Source: a virus
Taxonomy: Duplodnaviria > Heunggongvirae > Uroviricota > Caudoviricetes
Length of the DNA: 30,189 bases
Strand: one strand, 5' to 3'
IMG/VR virus record: IMGVR_UViG_2663762810_000004
Location: 1-30,189 of that record
The notes under the pieces were generated by a model. That model searched no databases. It saw only the letters and a program-made list of their open reading frames with translations, and was not told the origin of the DNA. A program made the position numbers and the translations under genes. Shown one piece after another: positions 3,271 through 14,509 of this stretch. Positions within the stretch are counted from its first letter, which is position 1. The number at the start of each line of letters is the position of its first letter.

Positions 3271-3981
3271 GTGTATGGAGCGCAAAGAAGCATGAATCAA
3301 CAAGACCTGAATTTTGTAAGAATAGAATTGCGCCGCGCGCTACCTGACCTCTCTGGGGGAACAAAAGGGCAGCTTGAGGCTTTCAGTGAACACCCACCAG
3401 CAGACAAAAATGCCACCCCGCGCCGTGGAATTCATCTCGTCGAACTCGAAGGAGAGAAGGGGCCTCGCTTTGTTAACTCGCTTTCCGCGCCATTGTATGT
3501 ATTGGAAACACGCAGCCGCTGCAGGCCAATGCCGCCGATAAAAGATGCGGAATTTGAGTCCGCGCCGTGGCGTAGGGCAGTGTCCGCGCTTAGTGGATAC
3601 CAGCAGGCCTGGTTGCGGTACTGCTACGGTTTTGACCTTAGCTATAAGCACCAGGTGATGATGTGTGAATACGTCTGGAAAACTTATCAGAAATGCCTGG
3701 GTGATAATTCCCTTCAGGAGCGCGTAGTAAAGAAACTGATTGGCCTGGTATGGCTGGCAGGGCAGGAAATTGCCGCAACCAGAAATAATGAAACCTATAA
3801 AGACTATGCTGGTGCAGCGTTGGCCCGCATGGTTAGCGTTGATCGTTCGACATGGTTGCGTGTCTATTCAGGGCACTGGGCTGGGTTAAAGGCCGCTTTT
3901 ACCCAGCTTGATGAATCTGCGTTGGCAATGGCTCTTGAATACTATGAGGAAGAAGAAGCCCTCAAAGTGGCAGAAATGTAA
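3271..3981 (+). CDS. Putative late-gene antitermination protein Q-like (QuuQ-type)
   Basis: 236 aa ORF placed between the nin-like gene and a tR'-like terminator ahead of the lysis genes. Family assignment is from gene context and recalled similarity only. Confidence 0.45.
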   Translation: MYGAQRSMNQQDLNFVRIELRRALPDLSGGTKGQLEAFSEHPPADKNATPRRGIHLVELEGEKGPRFVNSLSAPLYVLETRSRCRPMPPIKDAEFESAPWRRAVSALSGYQQAWLRYCYGFDLSYKHQVMMCEYVWKTYQKCLGDNSLQERVVKKLIGLVWLAGQEIAATRNNETYKDYAGAALARMVSVDRSTWLRVYSGHWAGLKAAFTQLDESALAMALEYYEEEEALKVAEM

Positions 3982-4075
3982 AGTAAATTTCACTATCTCC
4001 TTCAAACGCGCTTGCAAAATGCAACAAAATAAGCCATATTTAAAGCGTATTTGATATGTTGCCAAAGTTTTATAA

Positions 4076-4100
4076 ACCCGCCAATGAGCGGGTTTTTGCG
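4076..4100 (+). terminator. Rho-independent terminator (tR'-like) downstream of the Q-like gene
   Basis: AAACCCGC-caatga-GCGGGTTTTTGCG: an 8 bp GC-rich stem followed by a T-run. Confidence 0.6.
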
Positions 4101-4144
4101 TTATAATTCACCGATTTAAACCAATTGTTTTAAATAGGTGAAGT

Positions 4145-4996
4145 ATGAAAATAGATAATCCCGAAAATCCACTTGAACGAAACGATTTTTCGATGGATGA
4201 CTTCCATCACTACTTAAGGGAGTTTGATAAAGCTGTATGTGAAGCGAATGCTGTAAGTCAGGGGGTTGGTGTGCGAATGGCTGAGGCTTTTAAAGGGTGG
4301 TCTACATACATTTTTTCACGAATCTGCATTCATGCTTCAATAATGATTTCCAACGTACCAAAATCAAGATGGGCTAAGCGGGATTATGACTTTTGGGATT
4401 TTTCGGCGATTGCACCTCATGTAAGAGCGATTCTGGAAGCTGAGTTATTGTTTATGTATTTATCTGAGAATCCAGATTCAACTGAGGAGTGGTCAGCAAA
4501 GTTGAATGTCATGCACATGAATGATTGTGTAAAGAGAATTGAGTTATTTACATCTAGTGATAATACGAAAGCATTGGATTTTTATCATGAACAAAAAGAT
4601 ATAATAACTGAGAGACTTAATAACAACCCTGTTTTTTTATCCCTTGAACAAGGAACCAGAAAACGTTGCTTGACTGGAAAAGCGCTTATGATTCCAAATC
4701 GAGATGAGTTATTGGTTAAACTGGGAAAAGATCCAAAGTCATTTAAAATAATGTTCGATTTTTTATCTCATTATACGCATATACTACCTATGTCATATTA
4801 TAAAATGGAGCCAAACGGAAGAGGAACTGGTTGTTTTAACAACTATGACTTTGGCTATATGATTATGGGGATGATTATTTGTACTGAATCCTTGACTAAG
4901 TGTACAGATAGATTAGTAGAACTTTTTCCTGATGTTAGACGGTTGCGAAAAGGAACTAAATCAAAATTCACGTTAGGTCCTAAACCTACAAAATAA
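4145..4996 (+). CDS. AT-rich hypothetical cargo protein (283 aa)
   Basis: Long ORF in a distinctly AT-rich block between the Q terminator and the lysis cassette. No recognisable family. Confidence 0.6.
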   Translation: MKIDNPENPLERNDFSMDDFHHYLREFDKAVCEANAVSQGVGVRMAEAFKGWSTYIFSRICIHASIMISNVPKSRWAKRDYDFWDFSAIAPHVRAILEAELLFMYLSENPDSTEEWSAKLNVMHMNDCVKRIELFTSSDNTKALDFYHEQKDIITERLNNNPVFLSLEQGTRKRCLTGKALMIPNRDELLVKLGKDPKSFKIMFDFLSHYTHILPMSYYKMEPNGRGTGCFNNYDFGYMIMGMIICTESLTKCTDRLVELFPDVRRLRKGTKSKFTLGPKPTK

Positions 4997-5022
4997 CAAT
5001 GAGTCGCTTGCTGCTATTTTAA

Positions 5023-5050
5023 AGGCTTCCAAATGGAAGTCTTTTATAAT
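5023..5050 (+). terminator. Possible terminator after the 4145-4996 gene
   Basis: Imperfect hairpin AGGCTTCC-aaat-GGAAGTCT followed by a T-rich tract. Confidence 0.35.
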
Positions 5051-5214
5051 TTCAGGTTTCGCAAATTATACTTATCTTCACATTTTCATAATAGCGCATA
5101 AGCCAGCCCCCCCTCCATCAACCACAGCGCCATACGAACTATCGGAGGTGAGGCTAAATTAGTAATCGTTCTTACCTGCACAGGTGCATAAAAATCAGCC
5201 TAAAATGCGAGTTT

Positions 5215-5877
5215 TTATGAAGAGAGCAGCATGACTTTTTCTTTTGCGGGCGAAGGTGACTGCTCTTTCAAAGGGAAAATTATAAATGCTATAAATGCAG
5301 TAAATAATACTATGAAAGCTAGCACTGTAACTTTCCTTGAAGATGATAGGGCTTTGTTATATTCCTTGGCTATTTTGTTCGTTATATGGATCTTAGTGCT
5401 ATTTATTTCATCTTTTAGTATGGATAATTTATTTATAAATTCCTGTGTTTCTTCTCGAGAGTAAAGTTCTGAAGCATCTCTTGGGGTTTCATGTGGATGC
5501 CGAGTATAACCAAGTATTTGTGGTATTAAATTACCATGCGATTGAACTACAGATTCATATTTCTTATAGCAAGCATTATCAAAAAATCTCATTCTTATGC
5601 TAAGTTCTCTGAGTTTGTCAACGTCTAGAGAAACTTGTTCGTTGGCAATAATTAAATCTCCGCGGTTTAATGTATTCTTGTGTTGAAAAATTAGTAAAAG
5701 CCATTCTGTATTATTGTAAAGCTTTTCAAGATTGGCATGTATATCAAGTCCGAGTTTTTCATATGCGGATAATTTGACCTCTTTTTCCTTTGCAGAAAGA
5801 GAAGATGAATAAGCCAGTAATCCGCTTATTATGGCAACAATAAATGTTCCTATAATGGTTAAGGTATTCGAGTCCAT
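5215..5877 (-). CDS. AT-rich hypothetical membrane protein. Start taken at the internal Met (MDSNTLTII) at 5875-5877; the ORF track extends to 5934.
   Basis: Hydrophobic segments at both the N terminus (IIGTFIVAIISGLLAY) and C terminus (VLAFIVLFTAFIAFIIF). Convergent with the 4145-4996 gene. Confidence 0.5.
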   Translation of the reverse strand: MDSNTLTIIGTFIVAIISGLLAYSSSLSAKEKEVKLSAYEKLGLDIHANLEKLYNNTEWLLLIFQHKNTLNRGDLIIANEQVSLDVDKLRELSIRMRFFDNACYKKYESVVQSHGNLIPQILGYTRHPHETPRDASELYSREETQEFINKLSILKDEINSTKIHITNKIAKEYNKALSSSRKVTVLAFIVLFTAFIAFIIFPLKEQSPSPAKEKVMLLSS

Positions 5878-5984
5878 TGTATTCTTCAAAAGTTGGTCAA
5901 AAATATATTGTAATATTTTAATGTATAAAATCAATCATTTCCCCTCATTCTGAGAGGACTCACAGCAACAAAGAGGGGGGCTAA

Positions 5985-7260: not shown

Positions 7261-7530
7261 ATGGGGCTTGAAATGATTATCGGCCTGGTTGTTGCTGTGC
7301 TGGCTGCAATTGCAGGTGCTTTTGGGCTGGGCAAATCACGCGGTACCAGTATCGCTGAAACAAAAGCGGACCAACAACGCACTGAAGAACGTGCAATAGC
7401 TATTGAAGCGGTTGCAGAACGCCGGGTAGAAACAACAAAAGGAGCCAGGGATGTACAACAGACTGTTAACCATATGCCTGATGACGCTGCTGATCGCGAG
7501 CTGCGCAAAAACTGGACACGTAAGGATTGA
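7261..7530 (+). CDS. i-spanin (Rz-like). Start taken at the internal Met (MGLEMIIGL) at 7261; the ORF track begins at 7156.
   Basis: N-terminal TM helix (IIGLVVAVLAAIAGAF) followed by a charged helical region, immediately after the endolysin. Confidence 0.6.
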   Translation: MGLEMIIGLVVAVLAAIAGAFGLGKSRGTSIAETKADQQRTEERAIAIEAVAERRVETTKGARDVQQTVNHMPDDAADRELRKNWTRKD

Positions 7531-7672
7531 GGTTATTGACACCGGCTGCGATTGGGTAAAACCCATCTACGGCACTGCTCATGATTGGGAAGTGCTGGAC
7601 AGGCAGACCAAGAAAGACATTCTTATGCATAACAAAGTGTGGATGTCAAACTGTGGCTCTATAACTTATTGA
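7451..7672 (+). CDS. o-spanin (Rz1-like outer-membrane lipoprotein), overlapped type
   Basis: Signal peptide with lipobox LIASC. Begins in the +1 frame inside the i-spanin gene and extends beyond it. Confidence 0.6.
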   Translation: MYNRLLTICLMTLLIASCAKTGHVRIEVIDTGCDWVKPIYGTAHDWEVLDRQTKKDILMHNKVWMSNCGSITY

Positions 7673-8322
7673 TTTTGTTTTTTGTTGTCTACCATATCAG
7701 GCAATGTGAAGGCATATAGAAGAAATACTTCGGTGAAACCAATCATTTCTTGAGCATCTTCTTTTGAAAATTCTTCATCAGAATGAACTGCTCCATTGGA
7801 ATCGATTCGAACTATATGTGCCCATTCCCTCATTTGATCTGTAATCAGTCCCTTAGCATGCAACATAGAAATCCGTTTAACCAATTTTTCATCTTTTGAG
7901 TCATTTCCCAGTAACTCCCGTGTAGCAATGTCCAAGACTTTACGGCAAAGCATAACGGATGTGTCGAAACGACAGCGCCCTAAGTTGTCTTTTGCTTCTA
8001 TGAAAGCCATAGCAGCACGTGGCGGAGTGTGTTCGGGGGCGTTAAGGAGGGTGGGTTTCGGGATGATATCAATCAACTGGTACTCAGTATTTCCAGGAAT
8101 GATTACGTTTACATCATTATTTTGCCTAGATTTTGCACGAGGTAAATAACCACCGGGATTATTCATTTTTACAATAGCAATACCTGATTGAAAACAGCTT
8201 CGACAACAAAATGCAATATTAACTAAAGGCCCGGCGTTGATACGCAGTTCTGCCCATCCTTCAAGGACAGCATTTTCCCTCAGACAATGTGGGCAAGTGA
8301 TATCGAAAGTGAGAATTCGCAT
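7666..8322 (-). CDS. DUF4145-like protein with N-terminal Cys cluster (candidate abortive-infection/defence gene). Start taken at MRILTFD (8320-8322).
   Basis: C-terminal region (RKVLDIATRELLG...HAKGLITDQMREWAHIVRIDSNGAVH) matches the recalled DUF4145 helical signature. N-terminal CPHC...CCRSC suggests a zinc ribbon. Lies in the moron slot between lysis and packaging genes. Confidence 0.6.
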   Translation of the reverse strand: MRILTFDITCPHCLRENAVLEGWAELRINAGPLVNIAFCCRSCFQSGIAIVKMNNPGGYLPRAKSRQNNDVNVIIPGNTEYQLIDIIPKPTLLNAPEHTPPRAAMAFIEAKDNLGRCRFDTSVMLCRKVLDIATRELLGNDSKDEKLVKRISMLHAKGLITDQMREWAHIVRIDSNGAVHSDEEFSKEDAQEMIGFTEVFLLYAFTLPDMVDNKKQNQ

Positions 8323-9067
8323 GACTCTACTCCATACATTAAAAGAAATTGAAAATGAATTACACAATGCACAACGACCTGAGTCTACACTCCTTCAACG
8401 ATATGAAGTATCGAATGAGATTAAAAAAAAGGAGTTTGTAGTCGCTTTGATCGGTAAACTGATAGAATTGGACCGCCGTCTCTATGTCACATCATTGAAG
8501 CCTTAGTTTCAATTTTACCGATTTATCGCTTAAGGGGTAGGACTTCAACACTACTAAGTGAGCATTGCAGCAGGCATTCAGGGGAATGCTGTGACAGTAG
8601 TTAGCTAGGGTAAACCGTTTGCGCCTGGGGATTTTACTTTGCGACGGAAAATTAAAAAACTATATGATTTCTTATCCCACTAGGATGTCTGCGGACTACT
8701 ACTGACTGTTTAGGCTATTACGAGGGGCTCAAACTCAACGTCTGGCATCAACGCAGAACTGAAAAAGTCGCCATGAATGTGGTTACGGTATTTGGTGGGA
8801 TATAAACGTACCTTCATTTCTAAGCTTGATAATCACCTTTGTCCGAATTGCCTACGCGATAGTCATGTAGTTTTAGTCATAACCGTTTACCCTATTGATG
8901 TCAAGATAAATTGGATAACACTGATGAATCGAACCTCTAAATCCTTTGATGGGCCACTCATAGCTGACTGGTTCAAAAAAGTGTTATCAATGGTATGATA
9001 AGTTGAGATGAAAGGTGTAAATGAACTATAATAATTCAACAGTTAATCTGAGAAAAATGGATTATGT

Positions 9068-9337
9068 ATGTCGAATGTAAAAAAAATAGATGCTATAGTT
9101 CAAAATTTATTTGAATTCAGAGATGCTACAGGTGAACTTACGGATAAAAATATTGTTTTAATACAAAAAATCATAACGAACTTACCTGACTATGCTGGTA
9201 AGGATCCATATGAATTTTATTCATCATTTTCTGAAGATATTAATGAGTCGCTCAAAGCAATTGCCAATTATCATAAGGCACATGCTAAATACATTAATGC
9301 CCTCGATAAATTAGCAGAGCTTAGGTCGGAGGGGTAA
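9068..9337 (+). CDS. AT-rich hypothetical small protein (first gene of a two-gene cargo operon)
   Basis: 89 aa ORF in an AT-rich block; the next gene starts 3 nt after its stop. Confidence 0.5.
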   Translation: MSNVKKIDAIVQNLFEFRDATGELTDKNIVLIQKIITNLPDYAGKDPYEFYSSFSEDINESLKAIANYHKAHAKYINALDKLAELRSEG

Positions 9338-9339
9338 TA

Positions 9340-9717
9340 ATGGCTACGGAAGATATTCAGGCTTTGTTATCTAAAGTTAATGCGTTAAGATTTGAAGATA
9401 AAAGAATAGAGAAGGAAACAGGAGAGATTGAAAATGAAATTCAGGCTCAATTTCTTCGTGATGGTAAAACAAGGAGTACATTAACCATAACATTTATGAG
9501 AGGCTTTTTTGGTCTTATCGTTTTTTCTTTTATATTTGTGATAGTTTATAACTATTGCGCAGTGCAATGGGTACTTCAATTACAAAGCAAAGGGCTCATG
9601 GAGGCTTCTAAAAGTATCGCACTACTTGAGTTAGATAAGGTGTTATCTATTATGGTTAGTGCGTTAGGAACATCTCTTGGGTTTATAATTGGCTATTATT
9701 TTAAAGACAAAAAATAA
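9340..9717 (+). CDS. AT-rich hypothetical membrane protein (second gene of the two-gene cargo operon)
   Basis: N-terminal predicted coiled-coil (EDIQALLSKVNALRFEDKRIEKETGEIENEIQAQ) followed by a TM helix (FFGLIVFSFIFVIVYNY). Confidence 0.5.
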   Translation: MATEDIQALLSKVNALRFEDKRIEKETGEIENEIQAQFLRDGKTRSTLTITFMRGFFGLIVFSFIFVIVYNYCAVQWVLQLQSKGLMEASKSIALLELDKVLSIMVSALGTSLGFIIGYYFKDKK

Positions 9718-9790
9718 ATAATTTAATTTTACATTGCTATTTATGTTTTGCTTTTAAGATTTTTAACTTTCTAGATGTAGAGTTATTGTT

Positions 9791-9822
9791 AAAGCACTGG
9801 TATTTGCCAGTGCTTTTTTATT
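9791..9822 (+). terminator. Rho-independent terminator after the 9068-9717 operon
   Basis: AAAGCACTGG-tatttg-CCAGTGCTTTTTTATT: a perfect 10 bp stem plus T-run. Confidence 0.6.
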
Positions 9823-10217
9823 AAAATCCGCGGATTAATGACGGCAATCATGAATACTCCTCCAAAGACTGATCCAACGATACGGGTGTATAAGTCACAC
9901 TTGTTTAATCTGTGATTGATGGCACTATAATTTATGTTGCACAACATAAACTGCCGATGGAGGGAATTGAGTGCTGAGCATGTCAGACATAAGTGTGTTG
10001 TCGAAGGTCTCCTCAGGCATGGTTTCTGCATAACGTCGACACTTGAAAGCCTCCATAATGACAATAAAGTATAAGTATTATCATTATTAATTGTCACTTG
10101 CCGTTGCGACATGCTTGGGCGGCGACCGCCTAAGTTCTCTTTATAAATGAGAAGTTCCCGCTAGCGACCGTTTCTGATTCTTTTTTTCTACTAAGTTTGT
10201 ATCAAATAAACAGGATA

Positions 10218-10586
10218 ATGCCGATGCCAGCACGAGCAAAGCGTCCATGCCGGCACAAGGGCTGTGCGGCAGTTACCAACGATGCCAGTGGCTATTGTGA
10301 TCAACACCGACAGCGGCATGCTGGTGATGGCTGGCGTAACTATCAGGCAGGAAAGAGCAGGCAGGAACGTGGATATGGGCGGACCTGGGAAATTAAACGG
10401 GTGCGTATCCTTCAGCGTGATAAGTACCTGTGTCAGAACCATCGCCGGCAGAAGATTGCAAAAAAGGCGACCAGCGTTGACCACATCATTCCAAAAGCTC
10501 ATGGCGGTACTGATGACGATTTCAATCTTGAGTCGTTGTGCTGGGACTGCCACAGAGCGAAGACGGCAAGAGAGCGTATCCGATGA
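10218..10586 (+). CDS. Phage HNH endonuclease (packaging-associated). Start taken at MPMPARAK (10218).
   Basis: HNH motif (DHIIPKAHGGTDDDFNLESLCWDCH) with N-terminal Cys/His. Position upstream of terminase small subunit is typical of cos-packaging HK97-like modules. Confidence 0.8.
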   Translation: MPMPARAKRPCRHKGCAAVTNDASGYCDQHRQRHAGDGWRNYQAGKSRQERGYGRTWEIKRVRILQRDKYLCQNHRRQKIAKKATSVDHIIPKAHGGTDDDFNLESLCWDCHRAKTARERIR

Positions 10587-13249: not shown

Positions 13250-14509
13250 ATGTTCATTCCCCAGATGTTTCGGGGTAAATCTCAGTCTGGTGGTGGTTTC
13301 TGGCAGGCGATGCTGGGTGGGGTGAGTTCCAGCCAGAGCAAGGCGGGGATCATTATCACTCCTGAAACCGCACTGGCGTTATCGGCGGTCCGGGCATGCG
13401 TAACGCTTCTGGCAGAATCGGTGGCGCAGTTGCCGTGTGAACTTTACAGGCGAGGCGCTAACGGAGGCCGTGAACGGGCGACTGACCACCCTGTTTATGA
13501 TCTGATTCATTCCCAGCCCAACAAAAAAGACACCTCGTTTGAATACTTTGAGCAGCAACAGGGCCTGCTCGGGCTGGAGGGAAATTGCTACTCGATCATC
13601 GACAGGGACGGGAAAGGGTATCCCCGCGAATTAATCCCGGTTAATCCCAAAAAAGTCATCGTCCTGAAAGGGCCTGACGGGATGCCCTATTATGAACTCC
13701 CCGAAATTGGCGAAACGTTGCCAATGCGCATGATGCATCATGTGAAGGTTTTCTCGCTGGATGGTTATATCGGTAGCTCTCCGATCCAGACGAACGCAGA
13801 CGTTCTTGGGCTGAACCTGGCCGTTGAAGAGCATGCTTCTCAGGTTTTTCGCCGTGGCACAACGATGAGCGGCGTTATTGAGCGACCAAAGGAGGCTCCG
13901 ACAATAAAGAACCAGGAGAAGATTGACCAACTTCTTGCTAAATGGACGGATCGTTATTCCGGTATGCGTAATGCCTTTTCTGTCGCATTGCTTCAGGAAG
14001 GGATGAGCTACAAACAGCTATCTCAGGATAATGAGAAAGCGCAGCTGTTGCAGTCCCGCCAGTGGGGCGTGGAGGAAGTTTGCCGACTCTATAAAATCCC
14101 GCCTCATATGGTGCAGATGCTGGCGAAAGCCACAAATAACAACATTGAGCATCAGGGGCTGCAGTTCGTCATGTATACGCTTTTAGCCTGGCTGAAACGC
14201 CATGAAGGCGCATTAATGCGCGATCTGCTTTTACCCAGCGAGCGCGGTAGTCTGTACATTGAATTCAATGTATCCGGCCTGCTGCGCGGGGATCAGAAGT
14301 CACGCTATGAATCTTATGCGCTGGGCCGTCAGTGGGGCTGGTTATCGGTTAATGACATTCGCCGCATGGAGAACCTTCCTCCCATCGCCGGTGGGGACAA
14401 ATACCTGACGCCTCTGAATATGGTCGACAGTAAACAAATCTTACCTGGCAATAACGCGCCAACAGCTAAACAACTGGCAGAAATCGAAACTATTCTGGCC
14501 AGAGCCTGA
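13250..14509 (+). CDS. Phage portal protein (HK97-family-like)
   Basis: 419 aa ORF in the canonical position after TerL and before the prohead protease. Confidence 0.8.
   Translation: MFIPQMFRGKSQSGGGFWQAMLGGVSSSQSKAGIIITPETALALSAVRACVTLLAESVAQLPCELYRRGANGGRERATDHPVYDLIHSQPNKKDTSFEYFEQQQGLLGLEGNCYSIIDRDGKGYPRELIPVNPKKVIVLKGPDGMPYYELPEIGETLPMRMMHHVKVFSLDGYIGSSPIQTNADVLGLNLAVEEHASQVFRRGTTMSGVIERPKEAPTIKNQEKIDQLLAKWTDRYSGMRNAFSVALLQEGMSYKQLSQDNEKAQLLQSRQWGVEEVCRLYKIPPHMVQMLAKATNNNIEHQGLQFVMYTLLAWLKRHEGALMRDLLLPSERGSLYIEFNVSGLLRGDQKSRYESYALGRQWGWLSVNDIRRMENLPPIAGGDKYLTPLNMVDSKQILPGNNAPTAKQLAEIETILARA

Follow-up and report, generated by a model that had tools for sequence, protein, structure and literature searches.

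The window analysed here is a stretch of 30,189 nucleotides from a virus of the class Caudoviricetes (IMG/VR record IMGVR_UViG_2663762810_000004). On its minus strand, at positions 7666-8322, lies a gene of 218 codons plus a stop codon that we describe as a RAZR-like zinc-ribbon/HEPN (DUF4145) gene, a description founded on its open reading frame and translation, on matches to Pfam and phrog_1305 and on homology to RAZR; it is referred to below by its predicted activity as the RNase gene. The predicted protein begins MRILTFDITCPHC and ends NKKQNQ*. The ATG at 8322 is taken to be the start codon because M1 is invariant in a narrow family alignment of 39 sequences (alignment A1) and because GGAG is found 8 nt upstream; a longer version of the gene, starting from a TTG at 8367, was without support. 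At its 3' end the gene shares 7 nt with the end of a convergent o-spanin-like ORF (7451-7672), in which a lipobox, LIASC, was recognised by direct reading of the sequence, and the modules that follow the RNase gene in the window are HNH (10197-10586; Pfam HNH, E=8.7e-13), terS, terL and portal. The initial annotation had reported a reverse ORF between the spanins and the HNH/terminase genes, and it proves to have been accurate in both strand and position.

The region immediately upstream (8323-8580) travels with the RNase gene. It overlaps a small ORF that is discussed below and is expected to hold the RNase promoter; the 135 bp or so that adjoin the RNase ATG are nearly invariant. A scan for sigma-70 promoters and terminators found no consensus sigma-70 promoter for the RNase gene on the minus strand, with counts equal to the shuffled expectation. 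Rfam and tRNA scans returned nothing in or near the locus, and no NCBIfam model matched the RNase gene or its neighbours.

Genomic slots and neighbouring cargo

The RNase gene is part of a low-GC cargo island (7600-10100) that lies between the lysis and packaging modules, at the lambda bor position. The GC content across approximately 7600-10100 is 0.31-0.43; the lysis genes have 0.51-0.55 and the HNH/terminase region has about 0.47-0.53. Relatives of the gene were observed as single antisense insertions in at least three cargo slots of lambdoid prophages. The first slot, from spanin to terS, is the one used in the window, by the 97%-identical P0001 copies, whose phages have a terminase of the lambda Nu1/GpA type, and in Klebsiella P22-like prophages; the second, from the replication genes to ninB, is used in Serratia, Providencia and the Stx phages 75/02 and POCJ13; the third, from Q/RelB-YafQ to the holin, is used in Salmonella. 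In 70 of 80 IMG/VR viral loci the gene runs antisense to its surroundings, by which we mean that the majority of the flanking coding length on both sides is on the opposite strand. The context statistics come from IMG/VR and the assembly index because a scan of genome contigs yielded only seven loci. The proposal that the gene occupies a variable cargo slot is upheld by this synteny comparison, with relatives antisense in three lambdoid slots and the gene itself in a low-GC island.

At the DNA level the RNase gene is 94.7% identical to the copy at a related locus, L010, whereas identity falls to 72% in the neighbouring spanin and to 78% in the upstream region, and similarity to the phages that carry the P0001 copies stops at window position 8580. 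On this nucleotide comparison, the contrast in identity between gene and flanks, together with the stop at 8580, is the mosaic signature of a cassette. The P0001 copies adjoin a different ORF, of 157-170 aa, and a different terminase type. The Stx-phage version of the protein, with about 51% identity to that of the window, is present in 37 of 5426 complete E. coli genomes, where it is annotated just as 'DUF4145 domain-containing protein'; the Stx-phage homologue is YP_009226851.1, and one E. coli homologue of the window protein is found in an ECOR13 prophage. These comparisons show a gene that behaves as mobile cargo, antisense in lambdoid prophages.

To the other side of the upstream region is a two-gene operon on the plus strand (9068-9717; GC about 0.31) that encodes proteins of 89 aa (phrog_21707) and 125 aa (phrog_20796). 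It had been put forward as a possible partner of the RNase gene. The 97%-identical copies have different neighbours and similarity to them ends at 8580; the operon is not conserved beside the relatives and we regard it as separate cargo. A second low-GC island (4000-5950; GC 0.32-0.39) separates the Q antiterminator gene (3271-3981) from the holin and contains an ORF of 283 aa on the plus strand (4145-4996), with no NCBIfam match and no Pfam match recorded, and one of 239 aa on the minus strand (5215-5934), with no significant match in Pfam and none in PHROG, PADLOC or NCBIfam. This is the position of stx in the Stx phages, so the island may hold further uncharacterised cargo. At 27454-27643, on the minus strand, an Rfam isrK Hfq-binding sRNA (79 bits) directly adjoins a C4 antisense RNA (75 bits), a pair that we take to be a c4/ant immunity arrangement of the P1/P7 type; the window would therefore also carry an antirepressor-control module.

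Other conflict genes are found beside relatives of the RNase gene. In two Klebsiella prophages (loci L038 and L041, approximately 780-1070) the lysis-to-terminase slot contains, in addition to the RNase gene and its small partner, a gene of the Acb2/Tad1-hairpin family, which comprises anti-CBASS and anti-Thoeris sponges, and defence and counter-defence cargo would therefore lie side by side. Toxin-antitoxin pairs of the RelE/ParE and RelB-YafQ types directly adjoin the RNase/small-gene cassette in Stx phages (L001, 4141-4702) and in a Salmonella prophage (L043, 1687-2232). The presence of these neighbours suggests that small clusters of conflict genes assemble in the prophage slots.

Protein architecture and homology to RAZR

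The N-terminal part of the predicted protein (residues 1-53; 8164-8322, minus strand) is a Cys4 zinc ribbon that we presume to be a sensor. Within its CPHC...CCRSC motif the cysteines C10, C13, C40 and C43 are invariant in the family and C39 is not. An AF2 model (pLDDT 85.6) has a three-stranded ribbon (strands 20-27/33-40/46-53), followed by a helix and a beta-hairpin in residues 54-87 (H61-65, E73-75, E81-87) and then by an all-helical C-terminal domain. Matches of the N-terminus to RPB9/TFIIS ribbons were weak (E 0.04-0.15); among them was 1QYP, the ribbon comparator in the RAZR paper (PMC13017515). Residues 54-87 (8062-8163, minus strand) form a subfamily-specific insert, and residues 88-100 (8023-8061, minus strand) a conserved Pro-rich linker in which P88, P96 and P100 are invariant in A1. 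The remainder of the protein (residues 101-218; 7669-8022, minus strand) is a predicted HEPN RNase domain: Pfam DUF4145 (PF13643, HEPN clan) matches residues 120-198 with E=7e-11 and 42.5 bits against a cut-off of 23.1, and HEPN fold matches were obtained for the C-terminal domain. The zinc-ribbon-like N-terminus and the DUF4145-like C-terminal half had both been recognised in the initial annotation, and the invariant cysteines, the modelled ribbon and the Pfam score bear that reading out. The placing of DUF4145 in the HEPN superfamily dates from 2013, when zinc-ribbon fusions and viral members were already reported (PMC3710099).

A predicted catalytic motif, R-x3-N-x3-H, spans codons R172 to H180 (7783-7809, minus strand). 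In A1 its R172, N176 and H180 never vary, and in a broad alignment (A2) of 111 representatives that have 25-44% identity to the window protein their conservation is 90% or more. Variability is distributed unevenly, the insert having the highest entropy (2.53 bits), then the ribbon (1.58) and the HEPN domain (0.81). The protein is matched along its full length by phrog_1305 (E=2e-42). Its conservation goes well past what chance could give: a family profile search with a threshold of E<=1e-3 returned 2766 cluster representatives, and 139 were found at E<=1e-30. The assembly collection lists the exact protein in 27 blocks, from which 24 contigs were read. Megablast of the gene region gave no match among GenBank phages and, among E. 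coli genomes, a match to the spanin edge only.

This organisation recalls that of RAZR, the ring-activated zinc-finger RNase formerly known as PD-T7-4, from E. coli UMB1727 (PDB 9Y9C/9Y6U; Vassallo 2022, PMC9519451; Zhang et al., Nature 2026, PMC13017515). RAZR is a lone 219-aa protein in which a variable Cys4 ribbon, the zinc-finger domain, is the sensor and sets specificity, a conserved linker is required for function, and a DUF4145/HEPN RNase has catalytic residues R146 and H154, with the R146A and H154A substitutions each abolishing defence (PMC13017515). It is non-toxic alone, even when overproduced; it becomes active by polymerising around rings of approximately 170 Å that are formed by phage portals or by an Erf-like protein, and the active enzyme cleaves single-stranded RNA non-specifically so that the infection is aborted (PMC13017515).

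The best match in the PDB to the broad profile A2 was the RAZR cryo-EM chain 9y9c_OA (E=6.4e-7), with the ribbon (CPHC...CSHC) and the linker plus HEPN domain aligned separately. Compared by hhalign with a 39-sequence alignment of the RAZR clade, A2 reached a probability of 98% (E=1.9e-13); the aligned region is 171 columns long and runs from the initial Cys knuckle through to the final helix. With the narrow profile A1 the probability was only 57% (E=1e-4). A PDB search with the single sequence produced no meaningful match, and one with A1 produced marginal RPB9 ribbon matches only. In these alignments C10, C13, C40 and C43 of the window protein correspond to RAZR C16, C19, C49 and C52, the linker 'IIPKPTLLNAPEHTP' to the RAZR linker 'IIPAAGNVELPNPDMP', and R172, N176 and H180 to RAZR R146, N150 and H154. 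By BLASTP the window protein is 28% identical to a reconstructed RAZR-Ec over 151 aa of the linker and HEPN domain only (E=3e-4), again with R, N and H aligned. The 219-aa RAZR-Ec was rebuilt from two database fragments, with P0307 supplying the N-terminal and P0285 the C-terminal part, and it agrees with nine residue numbers given in the paper (V21, A68-G69-N70, R146, H154, D179, D180 and R184). Most of the entries in the true RAZR clade (P0270-P0389) are 146-166 aa long, start at the equivalent of M63 and are without the zinc ribbon, and at a Raoultella locus (L126, 3820-4441) a TAA stop interrupts the ribbon frame; many 'RAZR homologues' are therefore either mis-called or split, which would affect homologue counts.

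The PADLOC model for PD-T7-4 (PDLC04109) matches the HEPN part only of the window protein, with E=0.0023 and 15.5 bits, and it matches 63 of the 111 family representatives with a best E of 1.8e-11. Judged by sequence and profile, the window gene is a distant relative of RAZR that is homologous to it across ribbon, linker and HEPN domain; the comparison shows the same order of N-terminal Cys4 ribbon, proline-rich linker and DUF4145/HEPN domain with R-x3-N-x3-H. The two proteins have a superfamily and an architecture in common, yet these alignments place them in separate subfamilies.

One other description is in circulation: phrog_1305 and RefSeq label homologues 'DNA binding protein', and nucleic-acid binding is frequent among zinc ribbons, so the product might be seen as a phage regulatory protein in which the HEPN-like domain is non-catalytic. 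We find this highly improbable. The label is an unreferenced automatic annotation, the catalytic R, N and H stay invariant even in very distant relatives and correspond to residues that are essential in RAZR, and a gene that hops between slots and is antisense to core operons is unlike a core regulator.

A small gene divergent from the RNase gene

It had been remarked in the initial annotation that the RNase gene has no obvious partner. This was mistaken. A conserved ORF of 61 aa plus stop (8321-8506, plus strand; phrog_8371) diverges from it head to head, and the ATG codons of the two genes have a palindromic CATG in common. The ORF is identified by conservation, codon pattern, linkage and an AF2 model (pLDDT 87) of three helices; it has no Pfam match. 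The conserved motif of the small protein is DRPEFTLMQRYE...ALIGKLIEQDR, and the window copy matches phrog_8371 with E=8e-6, while the Stx-phage copy, which is annotated as gp20, reaches 7.5e-56. Gene callers have called the small protein in 80 protein clusters. Substitutions per codon position are 0.42/0.31/0.59 in the small ORF and 0.32/0.23/0.60 in the RNase gene, which is a coding pattern, and the upstream alignment contains an indel that preserves the frame of the small ORF. We had considered that the ORF might be merely a conserved promoter region; the codon-position pattern and the in-frame indels led us to reject this. The head-to-head arrangement is found in Enterobacter, Tatumella, Symbiopectobacterium, Rosenbergiella, Serratia, Providencia, Klebsiella, Salmonella, Alcaligenes and Stx phages, and the flanking phage genes are on the strand of the small gene in every context examined. 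The small gene as a partner of the RNase is a new observation.

The dependence of the two genes on one another is asymmetric. When the small gene was the query, a full-length DUF4145 RNase gene was present in all 36 IMG/VR loci and in all three assembly look-ups; when the RNase gene was the query, the small gene was present in 55 of 80 viral loci and the RNase ORF was intact in the other 25. The small gene is missing from the Klebsiella-type clade whose RNase has 212 aa, and it is absent, truncated or start-less at loci of close relatives (L047, L048 and P0001). The sole stand-alone case that we found is phiSTEC1589-Stx1c (L127, 1635-2695), in which the small ORF is retained with 98% DNA identity to that of Stx phage 75/02 and an unrelated 166-aa ORF on the plus strand replaces the RNase gene, the recombination breakpoint being at the shared start codon. 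The asymmetry, in which the small gene needs the RNase gene and not the reverse, suggests an accessory modulator rather than an essential antitoxin. On this pattern of co-occurrence, the 61-aa gene is most likely to be a modulator and not the effector.

Tight linkage of this kind could also be expected of an addiction module in which a constitutively active HEPN RNase toxin is held in check by a 61-aa antitoxin, the pair stabilising the prophage or, following decay of the antitoxin, causing abortive infection. HEPN toxins with small partners are well known (PMC3710099), the small gene is almost never alone, and RelE/ParE and RelB/YafQ modules adjoin homologues of the RNase gene. We nevertheless judge such a module to be quite unlikely. 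The RNase gene is intact in the 25 loci in which the small ORF is absent, truncated or without an ATG, including the Klebsiella clade with the 212-aa protein, L047 and the P0001 copies that are 97% identical, and since its loss leaves the RNase gene intact the small ORF would not be an essential antitoxin. The two genes are divergent and without co-transcription, and RAZR itself is harmless to the cell when overproduced (PMC13017515). No MNT-type partner accompanies the RNase gene either: a nucleotidyltransferase was not found among the flanking ORFs scanned or the Pfam matches at the window locus.

Putative function and comparison with known systems

We consider that the gene probably encodes a prophage-borne, RAZR-like abortive-infection RNase. 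Its earlier designation as a candidate anti-phage gene is strengthened by full-length homology to the characterised RAZR/PD-T7-4. Of the restriction and abortive-infection contexts with which DUF4145 had been associated, the first is only a general property of the domain (PMC3710099) and falls away, while the second is retained through the relationship to an abortive-infection RNase. We infer the trigger, the oligomeric activation and the phenotype from RAZR. By that analogy, the RNase would be made in the lysogen as an inactive oligomer; the variable N-terminal region, consisting of the ribbon and the insert, would bind one of the proteins of a superinfecting phage, perhaps one that assembles into rings as portals and Erf-like recombinases do; this contact would reposition the HEPN dimers to produce an active RNase; and non-specific RNA cleavage would stop translation and abort the infection. 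Points that count against this reading include the remoteness of the similarity to RAZR, the lack of a recognisable promoter and a problem of self-activation by rings, which arises because the induced prophage makes a portal ring of its own (portal gene, 13250-14509).

RAZR is described as a single-gene sensor that avoids autoimmunity since the host makes no rings of approximately 170 Å (PMC13017515). The prophages that host the RAZR-like subfamily build such rings themselves on induction, and this raises the question of how a prophage can carry a suicide system that senses structural proteins without killing its own lytic cycle. In this context the orientation of the small gene may be relevant: it is on the strand of the surrounding phage operon, so lytic read-through would express it and would also run antisense across the RNase gene. 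It is conceivable, if rather doubtful, that the 61-aa gene is a self-immunity switch for a prophage with a portal-sensing suicide RNase. The lysogen would express the RNase gene alone and so be armed against superinfecting phages; on induction, read-through from the early or late operon would pass antisense over the RNase gene and the small protein would be made, which would neutralise the RNase so that the prophage's own portal or recombinase rings trigger no suicide. Such a switch, if true, would be a new regulatory solution to the autoimmunity of RAZR-type sensors.

The existence of a large, divergent RAZR-like subfamily that is missed by current defence-finder profiles and resides in lambdoid prophages, including the Stx phages of E. 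coli and Shigella, has consequences beyond this locus. Annotation of Enterobacterales prophages would gain a defence family that has so far been missed, and this bears on the prediction of host range in phage therapy. It also raises the questions of how the ribbon and the insert contribute to trigger specificity and of how general ring-templated activation is in the superfamily. In its genomic placing the RNase gene resembles lambda bor and ren, 'moron' genes of the classical antisense or accessory kind that occupy the Rz/cos and P/ninB junctions; these are lysogen-expressed cargo at the same two genome positions, with bor also antisense, and their proteins and functions are unrelated to those of the RNase gene.

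[quoted passage not shown] Another parallel is DS-38, a single E. coli protein with a HEPN domain and a zinc finger that is experimentally anti-phage; it aligns with PD-T7-4 in the HEPN domain only, and its authors consider that its zinc finger is probably used differently (DefensePredictor preprint, 10.1101/2025.01.08.631726). DS-38, which we compared by description only, may belong to the subfamily of the window protein.

The likeness to RAZR is extensive. The two proteins are similar in length (219 aa in RAZR, 218 here), both combine a CPHC...CxxC ribbon with a Pro-rich linker and a DUF4145/HEPN domain that contains R-x3-N-x3-H, the most variable part of each is the N-terminal sensor region, and both are encoded on mobile elements. 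Against this must be set an identity of only about 28% and several structural differences. The hhalign comparison has a gap in RAZR at the insert of about 30 residues (54-87) that follows the ribbon in the window protein, so recognition of the trigger may differ. The dimer-dimer salt-bridge residues D179, D180 and R184 of RAZR map by hhalign to L202, Y203 and L207, and V21 maps to R15. The C-terminal helix-loop-helix of RAZR (approximately 190-219), with its conserved RD, is absent, the window protein ending five residues after the position aligned to RAZR residue 190 and having no counterpart of R206/D207 (alignment A3). Because the interface residues are not conserved and the C-terminal segment is missing, ring-templated assembly is not to be assumed for the window protein.

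These differences make it possible, if not to be expected, that the enzyme is a defence RNase of the RAZR superfamily that responds to some other trigger, either a phage protein that forms no ring or release from the small partner, and that assembles on no ring at all, a reading that overlaps with the one preferred here. The suggestion that DS-38 and PD-T7-4 employ their zinc fingers differently (10.1101/2025.01.08.631726) would agree with this. Ribbon, linker and HEPN domain nevertheless align with RAZR in the same order, and the invariant hydrophobic helix 'FTEVFLxYxFTLP' could provide an alternative dimer-dimer interface. RAZR needs no second gene, whereas in the window subfamily a head-to-head small partner gene accompanies most members, and the small-ORF profile gave no match at the one RAZR-clade locus examined. 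The kind of system to which the preferred reading, a RAZR-like abortive-infection RNase, would assign the window gene is thus a known one; what appears from these comparisons to be newly described is a divergent subfamily that lies below the PADLOC threshold, has structural features of its own and is usually accompanied by a partner that had not been described before.
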